A stretch of 63,960 nt of DNA, filler included. It is 8 parts of 8 records of this genome, joined end to end, with 100 filler letters (N's around TTAATTAATTAA, not from the genome) between each part and the next. Parts side by side here need not be neighbours in the genome. Positions count along the whole stretch, not along the records: positions 58,473 to 63,960 come from DRR723986_9691; 7 more parts are not named here. The stretch is one strand, 5' to 3'. Positions 5,651-63,960 of this stretch are shown here, one piece after another. A program made the translations under genes and the position numbers. Each line of letters begins with the position of its first letter. Position 1 is the first letter of the stretch. The notes beneath the pieces were generated by a model. It had not been told where the DNA came from and did not search any database. It saw only the letters and a list, made by a program, of their open reading frames with translations.

Positions 5651-5750
5651 NNNNNNNNNNNNNNNNNNNNNNNNNNNNNNNNNNNNNNNNNNNNTTAATT
5701 AATTAANNNNNNNNNNNNNNNNNNNNNNNNNNNNNNNNNNNNNNNNNNNN
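5651..5750. other. Artificial contig linker (also at 11906-12005, 25255-25354, 33941-34040, 41050-41149, 49041-49140, 58373-58472)
   Basis: N-run + TTAATTAATTAA (stops in all six frames) + N-run, identical each time. Confidence 0.98.
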
Positions 5751-56414: not shown

Positions 56415-58232
56415 TCATTTCTCTTCCCACCACCAGACATCGGGCTGGAAGCCCAGCCAGTCGCCATAGACCGGCGTGTCGGGGGAATAGGTCAGTTCCT
56501 TCGCATGGGCGATCCGGCTGAGGTCATAGCGATACATGATCGGGATGACGTAGCGCCCCGCCGTCAGGATGCGGTCGAGCGCGCGGGTGGCGGCCACGAA
56601 ATCCTCCTGGCTCTCGGCGGCCAGCATGGTGTCGATCATCGCATCGGCCGCCGCGCTCTTGGCGCCCATCAGGTTGCGCGATCCGATCTCGTCCGCCGCC
56701 GCCGATCCGAAATAGAGCCGCTGTTCGTTGCCCGGCGACAGCGAGAGGCTGCGCTCGTAATAGACCATGTCGAAGTCGAAGTCCTTCGAGCGCGCCTCGA
56801 ACTGCGCGGAATCGGTCATGCTGACGGTGGCGCGGATGCCCATGCGCTCCAGCGCGGTCGCGTACATCAGCGCGATGGCCTCGTCCTCGCCCTTGCCCTG
56901 CCGGATCAGGATGTCGAAGGTGAAGGGCTGGCCGTCCTTCTGCATCACCCCGTCCTCGATGGTCCAGCCGGCCTCGGCCATCAGGTCCATGGCGCGGCCA
57001 AGGTTCTTGCGGTTGCGCACCGACCCGTCCGAGACGGGCAGGGCGTAGCCCTCCAGCGTGCCGGGGGGCAGGTCGTCGGCGAAAGGCTCCAGCATCTCGC
57101 GCACGCGGCCCTCGGCGGGGCCGGGCTGCATCCCGAGAACCGAGTTCCCGTAATAGGAGGTGATGCGCGGCTGGCTGCCGCCGGTCTGCACATCGTTGAT
57201 GTATTCAAAGTTGAAGGCCTGCAGCAGCGCCTCGCGCACGCGCCAATCGCCGAACTTGTCGCGGCGGGTGTTCATGGCGAAGCCGTACATGCCGAAGGGA
57301 CGCTCATGCGCGATTTCGGACTTCACGATCTCGCCCGACTGCACGGCGGGAAAGTCGTACTGCGTGCGCCATTTCTCGACGTCGGTCTCGCGGTTGGAGT
57401 TGAGAACGCCGCCCTTGAAGGCCTCGAACATGGCGGTGCTGTCGGCGAAGAACTCCATCCGGATGGTGTCGAGGTTGTGGAACCCCTGCCGCGCGGGCAC
57501 GTCCTTGCCCCAGTAGTCGGGGTCGCGCGTCAGTTCCACGAAGCGGCCCGGATCGACGCTGGTGACGGTGTAGGGGGCCGAGGAGATCGGGATGGTGTCG
57601 AGACCGGATTCGCCGAAATCCCTGTCGTCCCATTGCGCCTTCTTCAGGATCGGGCGCATCCCTATGACCAGCGCAAGCTCGCGGTTGTCCTCGTTGAAGG
57701 TGAAGCGCACCGACCGCTCGCCGGTCTGCTCCATGCTCTCGACGCTCTTCCAGACACCAAGGTAGCGCGGATGCCCCTCGGTCCCGAGCGTCTCATAGGA
57801 CCACATCACGTCCTCGACCGTGACCGGGCTGCCGTCGCTGAAGCGCGCCTCGGGGCGGAGGGTGAATTCCACCCATTCGCGGTCGGGGCCGACCTCGACC
57901 GATTCGGCGAGAAGGCCGTAGAGCGCGAAGGGCTCGTCGTAATTGCGCTCCAGCAGGGTCTCGTAGGCGAGGAACCGCAGCTGCCAGGGCGTCGTGCCCT
58001 TGAGGATATGCGGGTTGAGGCTGTCGAAGGTGCCGACTTCGCCCAGAACGATCTTGCCGCCCTTGGGCGCATCGGGGTTCGCATAGGGGAAGGACGTGAA
58101 ATCCGGGGGAAGCGCCGGGTCGCCATACATGGCAATGCCATGCTGCGGTTCCGCGAATCCCTGAACGGCCGAGAGAATCAGCGCCGGGATCGCGCAAGAA
58201 AACACCCCGGACATGGAAGATTTGATGTTCAT
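56415..58232 (-). CDS. ABC peptide solute-binding protein (YejA-like)
   Basis: HGIAMYG, ANPDAPKGG, FDSLNP, YGLLAE, SPGNEQ; start uncertain. Confidence 0.9.
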   Translation of the reverse strand: MNIKSSMSGVFSCAIPALILSAVQGFAEPQHGIAMYGDPALPPDFTSFPYANPDAPKGGKIVLGEVGTFDSLNPHILKGTTPWQLRFLAYETLLERNYDEPFALYGLLAESVEVGPDREWVEFTLRPEARFSDGSPVTVEDVMWSYETLGTEGHPRYLGVWKSVESMEQTGERSVRFTFNEDNRELALVIGMRPILKKAQWDDRDFGESGLDTIPISSAPYTVTSVDPGRFVELTRDPDYWGKDVPARQGFHNLDTIRMEFFADSTAMFEAFKGGVLNSNRETDVEKWRTQYDFPAVQSGEIVKSEIAHERPFGMYGFAMNTRRDKFGDWRVREALLQAFNFEYINDVQTGGSQPRITSYYGNSVLGMQPGPAEGRVREMLEPFADDLPPGTLEGYALPVSDGSVRNRKNLGRAMDLMAEAGWTIEDGVMQKDGQPFTFDILIRQGKGEDEAIALMYATALERMGIRATVSMTDSAQFEARSKDFDFDMVYYERSLSLSPGNEQRLYFGSAAADEIGSRNLMGAKSAAADAMIDTMLAAESQEDFVAATRALDRILTAGRYVIPIMYRYDLSRIAHAKELTYSPDTPVYGDWLGFQPDVWWWEEK

Positions 58233-58309
58233 TCTGAAGATCGCCCCGCACTGCCCTTGTTTTGTTGACCTATGAATACCTGCGCTTTTACGCCTTTTCA
58301 AACTTTTAG

Positions 58310-58338
58310 CTTGGACTCGGGCGCGAAAGCGCCTATAA
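58310..58338 (+). promoter_or_regulatory. RpoH-like promoter directed toward the contig end
   Basis: CTTG-N18-CCTATA. Confidence 0.4.
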
Positions 58339-58472
58339 CAGGGGCACTGCTCGATAGGTTTCTTGCCTGTATNNNNNNNNNNNNNNNNNNNNNNNNNNNN
58401 NNNNNNNNNNNNNNNNTTAATTAATTAANNNNNNNNNNNNNNNNNNNNNNNNNNNNNNNNNNNNNNNNNNNN

Positions 58473-58834
58473 GGTTGGCCAACCATGATTTGCCTCATCC
58501 CGATGCAGCGGCGTTGCGGCTTCAATTGGACAAAATGGCACCCAGCATGGGCTTACCGCCCAGCAAGGAAATTGAACTCATCGGGGATCAAAATCGACGC
58601 GAGATTTTCGACAAGTTCAAACCCATCAACAAGAAACTTGGAGGTCTTGTTGGACGAAGCGAATTCTTTACGGATCTTGACCAAGCTCTTGTGCCGCAGC
58701 CCGTGGCGGAACGCGACGCCTTTGATGCCTCCATTTCATATTTGAAAAATCTTCGGGGCAACGAAGACATTGATAAAAATCGTGAGTTCATAGATCTAGC
58801 ATTCAATAAGTCGCAGAGTTCTTGGATTACATAG
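58473..58834 (+). CDS. C-terminal fragment of a hypothetical protein
   Basis: Open frame from the contig start to TAG; no recognisable motif. Confidence 0.55.
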
Positions 58835-58911
58835 ACTTACTCTGCGTCGGCAAATGTTTTTGAGAAAAATGCCTGTAGTTCGCTGTTCTAATTAGTCGTT
58901 TCAACTCGACG

Positions 58912-58940
58912 TTGACTTCTTAACCTTATAAATTCAGTCT
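58912..58940 (+). promoter_or_regulatory. Putative sigma70 promoter for the C4-like leader and nuclease
   Basis: TTGACT-N17-CAGTCT immediately before the first leader hairpin. Confidence 0.5.
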
Positions 58941-58942
58941 CA

Positions 58943-58985
58943 AGCGGTACGCGCCGCTCGGGCCTTAGAACCCCCCTAAGCAAGT
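58943..58985 (+). promoter_or_regulatory. c4-a1b1-like target element
   Basis: Hairpin AGCGG/CCGCT, then a GGG/CCC hairpin exposing TTAGAAC (b1), then AGCAAGT (a1). Confidence 0.6.
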
Positions 58986-59046
58986 GGTTGGCCAGACCAA
59001 AACTGTGTCATCGACCTTGACTTCTTAGGTCTGGGTGCCTGTGGCG

Positions 59047-59112
59047 TATGCCCGGGGCGCTCGCCTAAAGGCCATGGGGACCGGGCTTGCTTCGGTTGTT
59101 CTAACTCCCGGA
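59047..59112 (+). ncRNA. C4-like antisense RNA
   Basis: Closing stem CCGGGG/TCCCGG, hairpin GCC-TAAA-GGC, hairpin ACCGG-GCTTGCT-TCGGT (a' loop) and single-stranded GTTCTAA (b'), complementary to upstream a1/b1. Confidence 0.6.
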
Positions 59113-59172
59113 TTGGGAATTCAGTCTCTCATTTTGCGGGGGCGTACCGAAGAACAGACACTGGGGGTTATT

Positions 59173-60327
59173 TTGAAAGCAGTAGGTGCACCGATTTGGG
59201 TGCGGGAGAATTCCGCGAACATCCTTCTTCAACAAAAAATCGGCAAAGGCGCTCCCTTTGATGAGCGCTGGCTTCAGGAGCTTGTGTTCAGGCATCCTGA
59301 AGCAATTCCAATGAGCCAGATTGAACCCGGGCTTTCGACGTTAATACCCGTTTGCATGGAGCTACCTCTGAGGTGCGGATTCCTTGATAGCTTCTACGCG
59401 ACTTCGGACGGCGATCTTGTAATCGTCGAAGTTAAGCTGTGGCAGAACCACGAGATGCGCCGGAGCGTCATGGCGCAAGCGCTGGACTATGCATCAGCAA
59501 TGTTCGAGCTTACCTATGAAGAACTCGATCTGGCGGTACAGAACGCGGAACAAAAGGAAGGTAAGTCTCTCTATGAAATCGTGAATCCCGCCGAAACCTT
59601 GGAAGAACGTGACTTTATCGATGCGGTTTCACATAACCTTAAAACGGGTCGCATTGTTGTGTTGGTTCTAGGTGATGGGATCCGAAGCGAGTTAGAAAAC
59701 CTGCATGGGGGGTTACAGCAGCACGCTGGATTTCAGTTCACTTTTGGATTGGTGGAATTGTCGGTCTACGAGCCTGAAACCGGAGAATACCTGTTGGTGC
59801 CACGCACTTTGGCCACAACACATCGAATTGAAAGGGGAGTTGTGAGGGTTTCTGGTGGCGTGGATCAGGTCACATTTGAACCTGCGCAATTTGTTGCACA
59901 GACTGCTGATAGCGCAGCCAAAACGATTTCGTCAGATATTTTTTTTGACGCAATGTCAGAAATTGACCGAAACTTGCCCGCTCAATTGCAGGTGTTGCTT
60001 GATGAACTGGCCAAGTTGGGCGTGTACCCAGAATATAAGAAATCTCTCATTCTTCGTTGGAATTCGCCCGATGGAGATGTTGCTAACCTCGGATATATTT
60101 ATCGCGATGGGCAAGTTTGGACTGATCATGTGTCCGAAAGCGTCAAGGACCAGAGTAGCACAGGTCGCTACCTTGCTGCGCTTGCGGAAAACTACGGATG
60201 CGAAGTAGGGGAAATTTCAGGGAGGCCGGTAGTTAAATTAAATGGCAAGGCTCCACGCGTTGAGCTGTTTTGTGCGAGAACGAGTTTGTGGGTGGAAGCC
60301 ATAGAGCGCTTCTTAGCTCATAAGTAG
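59173..60327 (+). CDS. PD-(D/E)xK nuclease, NucS/EndoMS-like domain protein
   Basis: ERWLQELV..HP, GFLDSF, VIVEVKLW, RSVMAQALDYA; TTG start after GGGGG RBS. Confidence 0.75.
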   Translation: MKAVGAPIWVRENSANILLQQKIGKGAPFDERWLQELVFRHPEAIPMSQIEPGLSTLIPVCMELPLRCGFLDSFYATSDGDLVIVEVKLWQNHEMRRSVMAQALDYASAMFELTYEELDLAVQNAEQKEGKSLYEIVNPAETLEERDFIDAVSHNLKTGRIVVLVLGDGIRSELENLHGGLQQHAGFQFTFGLVELSVYEPETGEYLLVPRTLATTHRIERGVVRVSGGVDQVTFEPAQFVAQTADSAAKTISSDIFFDAMSEIDRNLPAQLQVLLDELAKLGVYPEYKKSLILRWNSPDGDVANLGYIYRDGQVWTDHVSESVKDQSSTGRYLAALAENYGCEVGEISGRPVVKLNGKAPRVELFCARTSLWVEAIERFLAHK

Positions 60328-60622
60328 AAGTGGGCGGATTCCGGCCATTCGCTGGGGGTGCGAAAGTTTGCCATCAAAGTAGTGAAAGAAGCCTTTCCTA
60401 GGTCAATAATATTTGGCACCGATGTCGCACTCCGCCCCAAGGACAAGAAGCCACCGTAGGTTTCGGACTTTATAAAGTCATACGAACGGCTCGAAGTTGC
60501 CTTCCGTATTTGATCATCTTTATGACCGCTGCCATGTACTCAGGGCGGGCAAGAGTTTCTAATGCCTTTCATTTTCCATATTGACCATTTCAGTCTCTAA
60601 AAAGGTACCGGCACTTGATTTA

Positions 60623-61615
60623 TCAGCGATCACGCCCTCTTGTTCCCAGCAGTAGCAGAAAAACAAATACGGCCCCTACAGATGTGGTCACAATTCCCAC
60701 GGGGAGTTCCTGAGGCGCCAAGATAAGTCGAGATAGAATATCCGAACCCGTCAGCAAAATCGAACCTGTTATGGCAGCCAAAGGCAAAAGGCGGCGATGT
60801 AGAGGGCCCGCTAGTCCACGCGCGATATGGGGCACCATCAGCCCGACAAATCCGATGACGCCTGCAACAGAAACAAAGGCCGCAGTAGAGAGAGCAGCCA
60901 CCAAGAACATGCGGAACCGTACGGATCGAACTGGTACGCCAAGGCTAGAGGCGGTGATACCTCCGGCCAGCAAGGCATCCAGCCACCGATTGCGCCAGAG
61001 CGCATAGGCAAAGATCAAACCGAAGCCGGCCGCAACCAGCGGCAAGCTTTCCCAACGCGCTAGCCCCAGCCCTCCTAGCATCCAGAAGATGACAGAATGG
61101 GCCGCGCGATTATCGCCCGAAAAGATCAGGTAATTGGTAATAGCGGCAAACAGGAAAGATACAGCAAGTCCCGCAAGGATCAGCTTTTCGGGGGCGCTGG
61201 TGCGCAACGCTTGCACGAGGACAAGAACAATTCCAGAGGCAACCAAACCGCCACAGAACGCAGCGAGTGGCAGGGTCCATATACCGAAAACATCACCAGT
61301 TACGGTAATCACCAGAACCGCACCTGCAGCCGCCCCAGACGACAACCCAAACAAAAACGGATCCGCCAGATCATTCCGAGTTGTCGTCTGCAAAACTACA
61401 CCAACAACGCCCAGACCTGCCCCAATCAGCGCCGCAAAAAGCGCACGGGGTAATCTCAAATCAAAGATTATTCGGTGAATGGGTTCTGGATCGGTCACGC
61501 CGAACCCAAGACCGGTTGAAATTGCGACGAAGACGTCGCTCACGGGAATATCCGTGGTGCCATATAGCACTGACAGCAAAAGCAGGACGGCCAGGATGGC
61601 CGCCCCCAATATCAT
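60623..61615 (-). CDS. FecCD/BtuC-family ABC permease
   Basis: DLRLPR, RNDLADP, GVIGFVGL, ELPVG; start may be TTG at 61636. Confidence 0.92.
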   Translation of the reverse strand: MILGAAILAVLLLLSVLYGTTDIPVSDVFVAISTGLGFGVTDPEPIHRIIFDLRLPRALFAALIGAGLGVVGVVLQTTTRNDLADPFLFGLSSGAAAGAVLVITVTGDVFGIWTLPLAAFCGGLVASGIVLVLVQALRTSAPEKLILAGLAVSFLFAAITNYLIFSGDNRAAHSVIFWMLGGLGLARWESLPLVAAGFGLIFAYALWRNRWLDALLAGGITASSLGVPVRSVRFRMFLVAALSTAAFVSVAGVIGFVGLMVPHIARGLAGPLHRRLLPLAAITGSILLTGSDILSRLILAPQELPVGIVTTSVGAVFVFLLLLGTRGRDR

Positions 61616-63740: not shown

Positions 63741-63857
63741 GATCCGCCTCGCTGTCATGAGCGAGCGGACGGAAGGTGCCAGTTATGTAAACACGAATCA
63801 AACGTGTCATCAAAGCCTCCTTCCAGGACGCCCCGCCCTAGGTTGGTTGAACATGTG

Positions 63858-63960
63858 ATGGCAGGTCTCCTGACTCGCGGGTGATCGCTCTTCCGGCCTT
63901 CCCAGCCCTTTCGGCCAGTGGCGTATCGGTGTCGCTCTCCGCTCACAGTTGCGGGGGCAG
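63858..63960 (-). ncRNA. Cobalamin riboswitch (5' part outside window)
   Basis: Minus strand CTGCCCCCGCAACTGT, GCCACTG...GGGAAGGC and B12 box GAGTCAGGAGACCTGCC. Confidence 0.93.

Follow-up and report, generated by a model that had tools for sequence, protein, structure and literature searches.

In the stretch of DNA analysed here (63,960 nucleotides (nt) long, hereafter the window), the plus strand at 59173-60327 encodes a 384-amino-acid (aa) protein with an N-terminal PD-(D/E)xK nuclease domain, and the region directly before it, 58943-59172, is probably, if not securely, the 5' leader of the nuclease mRNA. This leader is one copy of a widespread, uncatalogued family of leaders on alphaproteobacterial mobile elements. 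It contains a Y-shaped RNA domain with a loop and a free strand complementary to two sites further upstream, an arrangement that a sequence-only reading of the window had taken for a C4-type antisense RNA switch of the phage-immunity kind, placed in front of the nuclease gene. The C4 analogy is right for the architecture, but it is wrong on how silencing would work and on a special link with the nuclease.

Parts, fold and long-range pairings of the leader

From 5' to 3', all on the plus strand, the leader begins with hairpin P1 (58943-58958, AGCGG-UACGCG-CCGCU), whose stem co-varies among relatives, followed by hairpin P2 (58960-58976), in which a GGG..CCC stem (GGGG-loop-CCCC is kept in the family) presents the word TTAGAAC (58965-58971; the b1 site of the sequence-only reading, which had rightly placed it in a loop). 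A single-stranded site, AAGCAAG (58978-58984; a1 in that reading), gives the best complementary run to the loop of hairpin B further downstream. Where relatives have a third hairpin, P3 (58986-59010), the window copy has a weakened one, and this is the most variable region besides a1 and its partner a'. The Y domain itself spans 59028-59114, as delimited by R1 (a covariance model of this domain built in the present analysis), RNAalifold and pair counts. Its closing stem of 10 base pairs (bp), formed by GGTCTGGGTG (59028-59037) with CTCCCGGATT (59105-59114), encloses hairpin A (59038-59078) and hairpin B (59079-59097); the loop of hairpin B carries the a' word CTTGCTT (59086-59092), and the junction strand b', GTTCTAA (59098-59104), is single-stranded before the 3' side of the closing stem. 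A cloverleaf had been proposed at 59052-59111; it is real but wider than proposed, the closing stem included. Further downstream, a 3' hairpin (UUUUGCGG-GGGCGUA-CCGAAGAA, 59132-59154) has one G-A mismatch in the window, GCGG-GGGCGYA-CCGC being near-invariant in the family, and it is followed by a Shine-Dalgarno (SD) sequence, GGGGG (59163-59167), and by a TTG start codon (59173-59175), the homologues beginning at the same residue (MKAVG).

The probable -10 element of the leader promoter is TATAAA (58927-58932), which aligns with a TATA/ATGAT-like block found in the family about 10 nt before the first hairpin and also present in pTiC58; it was not called by the consensus promoter scan. Another promoter, TTGACT-N17-CAGTCT (58912-58917 and 58935-58940), had been read from the window. 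Its strings are there, but they are not conserved in the closest relatives, in which the sequence upstream of 58943 is not conserved, and the scan found 0 promoter-like sites in 58800-59250. The remaining words on which the sequence-only reading was built are likewise in place (the hairpin at 58943-58958, TTAGAAC, AGCAAGT at 58979-58985, GCTTGCT at 59085-59091, GTTCTAA, AGAACA at 59151-59156 and AAGCAG at 59177-59182).

To measure these pairings we drew on relatives. A pattern of the conserved core retrieved 7 stretches on 6 IMG/VR contigs, at least 119 stretches in metagenomes and 6 sites in 5 genomes, and 117 distinct full-length copies (from metagenomes, IMG/VR and genomes, among the matches listed) were compared. 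R1 scored the window copy at 73.6 bits (E=3e-13). Across 55 diverse Y domains, 97.9% of the cells were paired and 11 of the 24 pairs had changed on both sides; 0 of 500 shuffles equalled the observed value, and sliding the partners lowered pairing to 37-53%. The upstream sites fitted the Y loop and junction of their own element far better than those of others (-23.7 vs -13.5 kcal/mol for non-cognate combinations; cognate better in 98%, p=8e-21, n=117). When the individual sites were taken from alignment columns, four aberrant rows (L151, L187, L188 and L196) were dropped, leaving 113 elements. Perfect runs of 6-8 nt join a1 to the hairpin-B loop in 105 of these, with 85 distinct words, and perfect runs of 6-7 nt join b1, in the loop of P2, to the junction strand in 105/113, with 28 distinct words. 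A further contact links the P1 loop, CG[C/U], with the loop of the 3' hairpin, GG[G/A]CG: 105 elements have C-G, 6 have U-A, 2 have U-G and 0 have C-A (n=113), and by eye the U-A cases are spread over apparently four lineages. Judged by covariation, the pairing of the Y domain, the two site pairings and this third long-range loop-loop link are established, and what was first noticed in the window is genuine and well beyond chance. The complementarity of the loop and the free strand to the two upstream sites, first read in the window, is thus borne out by co-variation in 113-117 relatives; the conserved leader that had been expected among nuclease homologues also exists, at 82-83% nt identity over 217-227 nt in the closest nuclease loci, against 50-59% protein identity of the nucleases.

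The window also contains repeats around these parts. TCGAC(G/C)TTGACTTCTTA (16/17 positions) and AATTCAGTCTC (exact) lie adjacent to each other upstream of the RNA (58906-58941), and the same two repeats flank the Y domain at 59011-59027 and 59118-59128, an arrangement in which the promoter region resembles the leader minus its Y domain. A third repeat, TTGACC-ATTTCAGTCTC, follows the nuclease gene (60580-60597). The flanking repeats could reflect promoter turnover by duplication, or they could be cassette boundaries. Direct repeats flanking the Y domain and recurring upstream, together with the association of the family with mobile elements, would also suit an element that works as DNA rather than RNA (a recombination site, a single-strand promoter or a cassette boundary). 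We consider this extremely improbable: many conserved G-U pairs are found on the sense strand of the gene only (for example GU in 45/55 and 32/55 sequences), orientation and distance to the start codon are fixed, and the region is present in contigs from RNA libraries.

The nuclease, the other genes served and the setting

Besides its nuclease domain, the 384-aa protein has a C-terminal MotA-CTD-like domain, as seen in alignment and structure matches. It has 358 relatives at E<=1e-3, the alignment of which sets the TTG start at 59173. E63, D72, E86, K88 and Q102 are invariant among 35 sequences, and the acidic-acidic-lysine motif on an alpha/beta core that characterises PD-(D/E)xK enzymes is present as D72, E86 and K88, with E63 and Q102. 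In the AlphaFold model (predicted local distance difference test score 78.7), the best predicted match is NucS (2vld_B; Z 9.6, root-mean-square deviation 2.7, 108 residues aligned), followed by PaqCI (Z 8.0), SduA (7.8) and FokI (7.1), with McrC, Can2/Card1, NucC and HamA also in the range of Z 6-8; Foldseek likewise gives 2vld a probability of 1.00, at a weak E-value of 0.015. The C-terminal domain of the model resembles the DNA-binding domain of T4 MotA (Z 6.6-7.1), and Foldseek concurs at weak E-values. Motif residues and structural matches thus agree with the identity first given to this gene, and a role in defence or restriction is plausible. The check for known defence systems with PADLOC, which had been recommended with that identification, did give a match, PDC-S11 at E=9e-7, but one that covers only residues 76-131 against positions 63-113 of a 358-position profile.

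The supposed tie of the switch to the nuclease did not survive the comparison: R1 finds the leader at 9 of 78 nuclease-homologue loci (L001, where it is truncated by the contig end, L002, L003, L006, L007, L013, L030, L038 and L029), and most copies of the leader precede other genes. At the Tropicibacter locus (L002), the nuclease gene is flanked on one side by a tyrosine recombinase and an Eco57I-type methylase, and on the other by a reverse transcriptase and another recombinase. In a metagenome-assembled genome of Roseovarius (L013; 814-1530 and 4001-4678) the nuclease is apparently split, the leader and about 160 codons being followed some 2.4 kilobases (kb) later by residues 159-384, and in Novosphingobium (L029, 3225-5203) the leader heads a two-gene unit, in which an open reading frame (ORF) of about 167 aa that belongs to no Pfam family comes before the nuclease homologue.

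Members of the family occur on plasmids. Of 72,556 plasmid records, 367 match a TraM-type copy; 269 of the 367 are predicted conjugative, and the genera include Agrobacterium (188), Rhizobium (79) and Bradyrhizobium (20); the window copy matches 58 plasmid records at 69-72% identity. Among 50,697 phage records 2 match, weakly and in part, and the 6 IMG/VR contigs bear an IS3-type transposase and cellular-type genes, which makes their 'viral' label doubtful. A phage origin was therefore rejected, and the leader is an element of the plasmid or integrative and conjugative element (ICE) type rather than a phage element. With R1 at E<=1e-3, it was found in 26 of 151 sampled genomes of alphaproteobacterial species, or in 25 of 150 if G045, which is unpublished, is set aside, with at most 10 matches per genome.

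The genes that follow the leader are diverse. On pTiC58 it occupies the gap between traH and traM and ends 20 nt before traM, and pAt15955 is alike. The IMG/VR copies precede PAS-GGDEF, SH3_3, outer-membrane protein (OMP) beta-barrel (twice) and VasI-like genes; on one of these contigs (L081/L082), two leaders 2.9 kb apart, with differing a and b words, stand before an OMP beta-barrel and an SH3_3 gene, the two units being separated by an IS3-type transposase gene. When the downstream ORFs of metagenome copies were examined by Pfam (n=62), 16 had Prok-TraM, 3 had RovC_DNA-bd (which we take to be the domain of QseM/FseA), 3 had GGDEF, 2 had HTH_3, and HTH_Tnp_1, OMP_b-brl, DUF429, DUF5818, OmdA and a weak MarR occurred once each; 32 belonged to no Pfam family. 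In low-GC genomes the leader is found before an OMP beta-barrel, an autotransporter, a TRL lipoprotein and small proteins of 58-95 aa. One of them, G007 (1.9 megabases, low-GC; loci L218 and L220-L227), has 10 model matches, mostly before paralogous proteins of 58-95 aa (MPDKFSK.. or MTELDKY..) without a Pfam family. At a further locus (L112, 55-152, minus strand), a match to Atu_Ti1, a small RNA (sRNA) of Rhizobiales, falls below threshold (27.5 bits, cut-off 55); a TraM-type leader follows about 1.4 kb downstream of it, on the opposite strand.

TraM sets the threshold of a textbook quorum-sensing switch. Besides traM, the family heads genes for qseM-like antiactivators, diguanylate cyclases and outer-membrane proteins, with a restriction-like nuclease in the window; the element is 210 nt long, has three long-range contacts that co-vary and output platforms of two kinds, and is absent from Rfam 15. 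In the literature covered, no structured leader before traM or qseM and no C4-like RNAs in Alphaproteobacteria are described, though subscription papers may bear on this point. The available text of the paper on the qseC/qseM switch mentions no structured qseM leader and has the term 'UTR' 0 times (PMC8789080). For traM, the review literature describes a weak TraR-dependent promoter with tra box IV and states that the regulation of TraM needs further study (PMC3907764, PMC4700958).

The setting of the window copy is bounded by its assembly. The window consists of draft contigs chained by 7 linkers, each an N-run with TTAATTAATTAA (58373-58472, and six more at 5695, 11950, 25299, 33985, 41094 and 49085), and neighbours across a linker are not true neighbours. 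The linker at 58373-58472 makes a cut about 470 nt upstream of the leader RNA, and the contig of the leader starts at 58473; with so little true upstream sequence, the sequence-only statement that no phage genes lie nearby is not confirmed. The preceding contig has a GC content of 64-73%, whereas values for 58.2-60.8 kb range from 38 to 53%; at the 58.4-kb joint GC falls from about 66% to this lower range, so that the sequences on either side are not genuine neighbours. The sole upstream gene content of the contig is the 3' end of a cut ORF (119 codons, 58475-58834, plus strand, 38-40% GC), which matches no Pfam or PHROG family and was not found upstream of the leader in L002. Downstream of the nuclease, the minus strand carries an operon of DUF1636, ABC_tran, Peripla_BP_2 and FecCD genes headed by a cobalamin riboswitch (63843-63960, minus strand, 83.7 bits), which is truncated by the end of the window. 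ARAGORN found no tRNA or tmRNA in 57500-61000, and such an identity was rejected for the leader.

Output platforms and modes of action

The start codon lies 94-118 nt past the core in most copies, and 101 nt past it in the window. The SD regions are better partners of the 3' strand of the closing stem than control SD regions are (-11.6 kcal/mol for the 82 elements parsed vs -7.95 for 498 controls, p=1e-18), GG[AG]GTT occurs in 16% of the SD regions of the family vs 2% of controls, and on visual inspection the 5' strand of the closing stem, CGGGGAG, recurs in many SD regions. Of 100 copies with AACTCC, 26 have an exact GGAGTT downstream; the word that would match is found after 0 of 23 copies with AACCCC and after 1 of 8 with AACACC. 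Read from the window sequence, GGGGGUUA (59163-59170) would be able to pair with UAACUCCC (59102-59109), which belongs to the junction and the closing strand. In the low-GC genomes G007 and G023, a hairpin and a U-run directly after the Y domain replace the conserved 3' hairpin, and in most low-GC copies an SD sequence and an ORF follow 21-43 nt past the modelled region. Three RNA libraries from three studies contain short contigs made up of the leader only (217 nt, 58950-59165; 152 nt, 59035-59186; and 184 nt, from a relative), which hints weakly that the leader RNA is discrete or abundant; one DNA run covers the whole stretch.

These data are explained best, and with some probability in favour, by a family of cis-acting structured leaders built like the immI leader of phage P1 and equipped with a variable expression platform; the leader most likely acts in cis, as a leader or attenuator, on translation or on termination. 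In this build, which covariation shows, a 5' module of two hairpins and a single-stranded site is followed by a spacer hairpin and then by the Y RNA, whose hairpin loop and junction strand pair with the two 5' sites, the contact between the loops of the first and last hairpins providing a third link. In GC-rich lineages, the window included, there is the conserved 3' hairpin, and the SD region, which resembles the 5' strand of the closing stem, could pair with its 3' strand, AAC(U/C)CCC; in low-GC lineages a putative intrinsic terminator comes straight after the Y domain. The Y fold, locked by the 5' sites, would then decide whether the ribosome-binding site (RBS) is hidden by the freed closing strand, or whether transcription reads through, and the leader would in this way set the expression of whichever gene comes next. 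Sibling RNA, a protein or a small molecule are candidate inputs that might shift the fold.

The sequence-only reading had placed control elsewhere: a processed C4-type RNA would silence the nuclease by pairing of a' and b' with second site copies, a2 and b2, around the RBS, as C4 does on icd-ant. The architecture does equal that of phage P1 up to the Y RNA, and the window has 5-nt partial repeats at the expected place (AGAAC at 59151 and AAGCA at 59177). Family-wide, however, such downstream words are found at chance level. Repeats of 6 nt or more occur in 3/113 and 3/113 elements vs 3.9 and 4.5 in non-cognate combinations, and at 5 nt, the length seen in the window, in 20 and 14 of 113 vs 20.6 and 17.1; the duplex energy of the downstream region with a' or b' is no better for cognate pairs (swap tests, p=0.77, 0.14, 0.35 and 0.97). 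The partial repeats are also missing in the closest relatives, L002, L003 and L007, and on pTiC58 the b1..a1 word pair is found only at the upstream sites and, reverse-complemented, at the Y domain, with no third site. Silencing through a2 and b2 is thus very improbable. A genome-wide search of four Rhodobacterales genomes for a second b..a word pair used a pattern too loose to tell either way, with fewer matches than its own control.

The same site pairings could act between molecules. Under such self-addressed control in trans, a stable leader-derived RNA, terminated or processed, would bind nascent transcripts of its own element at their two 5' sites, at a stage when these transcripts still lack a Y domain, and would redirect their folding. 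Expression would then depend on element RNA that is already present, a naive and an established cell would differ, and the variable a word would be an address separating paralogues. The divergence of the words points in this direction: between copies with 3-8% scaffold difference (54 pairs, scaffold about 6%), divergence amounts to 33% in the a columns and 29% in P3, but to 9% in the b columns, 8.5% in the P1 stem and 5% in the stem of hairpin A, and at 12% scaffold divergence (194 pairs) the a columns differ by 51% with complementarity retained. There are at most 10 copies per genome, close paralogues in G007 differ by eye in the a word, and neither word is shared by the two copies that a single contig carries 2.9 kb apart. 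The low-GC unit stops at its terminator and would yield a discrete RNA, the leader-only RNA contigs are in line with one, and phage P1 offers a precedent, C4 acting in trans (PMC8198154). Yet P3 diverges nearly as fast (29-37%), so that fast change may mean no more than a constraint to pair; the a pairing changes fast while remaining complementary, and the local hairpin P3 does likewise. The b word, moreover, evolves no faster than the scaffold, and intramolecular pairing would be kinetically favoured once the Y domain is made. We regard control in trans as a tentative possibility, on the unlikely side.

We give a slightly smaller chance to a specificity-coded self-recognition device, in which a stable leader RNA would use the variable a word of 7-8 nt and the b word to address only nascent leaders of the same element, and the genes would be expressed differently on fresh entry and in an established host. 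The earlier idea that the nuclease is released on transfer to a naive cell is possible only as a variant of this kind, with self-recognition at the upstream sites. If true, such a device would be an RNA 'immunity group' system outside phages, covering traM/qseM antiactivators, surface proteins or a defence nuclease.

A sensor, riboswitch-like or protein-binding, is improbable, and less to be expected than either form of self-recognition. Here the compact fold, with its three long-range contacts and the conserved internal loop AUGUCCAGG/CUAAAGG, would bind a metabolite, a second messenger or a protein, and the terminator or SD-masking platforms would read out the binding. Riboswitch classes show differing expression platforms behind one fold, and the family too combines one conserved fold with two kinds of platform; GGDEF cyclases, outer-membrane proteins, autotransporters and quorum-sensing antiactivators are among the products encoded behind it. 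This mixed set of genes nevertheless points to no ligand, the conservation of the internal loop is partly forced by the search pattern, and the topology is one shared with antisense RNAs and with no known aptamer. TraM also depends on Hfq: in an hfq mutant of A. tumefaciens the TraM protein is reduced (PMC4201532). This would fit a sensor and is consistent with post-transcriptional control of a leader-bearing gene more generally.

Several points weigh against the cis-acting leader as such. In the window copy, the closing stem contains a U-U mismatch in addition to the G-A mismatch in the 3' hairpin, and when this sequence is folded by itself its energy does not stand out (z=-0.91; equalled by 26 of 200 shuffles). 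The copies were retrieved with an exact pattern of the conserved core, and invariant core columns are therefore forced and distant members under-sampled. Covariation is blind to whether a pairing forms within one molecule or between two copies. The link between SD and anti-SD is statistical only, with 82 of about 129 elements parsed, and covariation of the exact words is too thin as proof. RNA contigs cannot show true RNA ends, and the leader flanks left uncovered in the three RNA runs are uninformative on ends. Finally, no input signal for a shift of the fold was identified.

Comparison with phage P1 C4 and other structured RNAs

The leader has the same order and topology as the immI leader of phages P1 and P7 (RF03163 and RF01695, clan CL00128), for which the phage P1 record annotates promoters, a1 (TTGACAG), b1, a 77-nt c4 RNA, a2, b2 and icd. 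In phage P1, the second of two adjacent hairpins carries a1 in its loop, and a1 matches the junction strand of C4, as TTAGAAC does in the window; b1 follows this hairpin as an unpaired strand, and its match is the loop of the second hairpin of C4, as for AAGCAAG; the a and b labels of the sequence-only reading, kept here, are swapped relative to the phage record. Both leaders continue with a spacer hairpin and a Y RNA made of a closing stem, two hairpins and a junction, their junction strands end alike (..CAACCC in phage P1, ..AACUCCC here), and in both the gene starts about 230-240 nt from the promoter. Two marks of the C4 clan are thus found, a Y-shaped RNA (by RNAalifold and pair counts against the Rfam C4 consensus) and two upstream sites, one of them in the loop of the second hairpin (113-117 elements and the phage P1 annotation). 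Two others are lacking, the curated gathering score and the a2/b2 copy over the RBS. The marks of the alphaproteobacterial family, namely a match to the Y model, a 5' two-site module and a start codon about 100 nt downstream, are all present in the window.

There are also differences from phage P1. The alphaproteobacterial family has no a2/b2 copy over the RBS, and instead of a phage immunity region it occupies plasmids, ICE-like islands and chromosomes of Alphaproteobacteria. The genes behind it are many and unrelated, and it has an extra conserved 3' hairpin or a terminator. The proposal of a C4-type switch therefore holds for the build of the leader, which is that of the phage P1 c4 leader, but not for the silencing step, the second site copy over the RBS being absent family-wide. 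C4 is said, after Hartmann in 1995, to be processed by RNase P; in some subgroups of the family, the window copy not among them, CCA follows the closing stem. The role of C4 in phage P1 is described in PMC8198154, and Weinberg 2010 (PMC2864571) assigns the motifs c4 and c4-a1b1 to proteobacteria, gamma-proteobacteria and phages.

The covariance models of Rfam, on which the C4 proposal was to be checked, did not support it. At gathering thresholds the window gave the cobalamin riboswitch only and no C4, c4-a1b1 or isrK; at E<=10 the segment 58700-59400 gave no member of the C4 clan, its two matches being to snoRNAs and due to chance, and the C4 model matched none of 5 family loci at E<=5. The same search on phage P1, run as a positive control, found C4 (68.8 bits), c4-a1b1 (51.0) and isrK (35.1), and the negative result for the C4 clan on the window is therefore real. 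R1, conversely, does not match phage P1 at E<=1. With no model match in either direction, the likeness to phage P1 is architectural, and homology is not demonstrable by these models.

Layouts of this sort recur in other RNAs. The short form of IsrK acts on its long form. The isrK model (RF01394, from Salmonella Gifsy-1) matches the a1b1 region of phage P1 (35 bits), which points to a clan with one layout, a short 5' RNA and a longer readthrough mRNA; it differs from the leader in having no model match to the window and in its host range. QfsR, an sRNA of pTiC58, is described as a conserved structured RNA of repABC plasmids of about 190 nt (bioRxiv 10.1101/533729). It was rejected as the identity of the Ti-plasmid copy, its locus being 139,075-139,262 against about 149,940-150,170 for the traM leader, and its sequence being unrelated.

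The best Rfam model on family members is sRNA-Xcc1 (RF02221), an RNA of Xanthomonas and Xylella mobile elements. It spans the whole Y domain (31.6 bits at L096, 23 bits at L135) and reaches up to 40.6 bits (E=8e-6) in G007; 0 of 5 genomes attain its gathering score of 53 bits, and on the window copy it gives no match even at E<=10. Like the leader, sRNA-Xcc1 precedes a gene that runs in its own direction, which in the integron cassettes of Xanthomonas is symE (bioRxiv 10.1101/2025.06.18.660453), and in Xylella its matches adjoin matches to C4 and isrK (PMC12189769). The window family, C4 and sRNA-Xcc1 therefore look like branches of one kind. If the reading of the window family given here holds, a regulatory RNA of the C4 type would be a common, portable leader in Alphaproteobacteria rather than a curiosity of enterobacterial phages.

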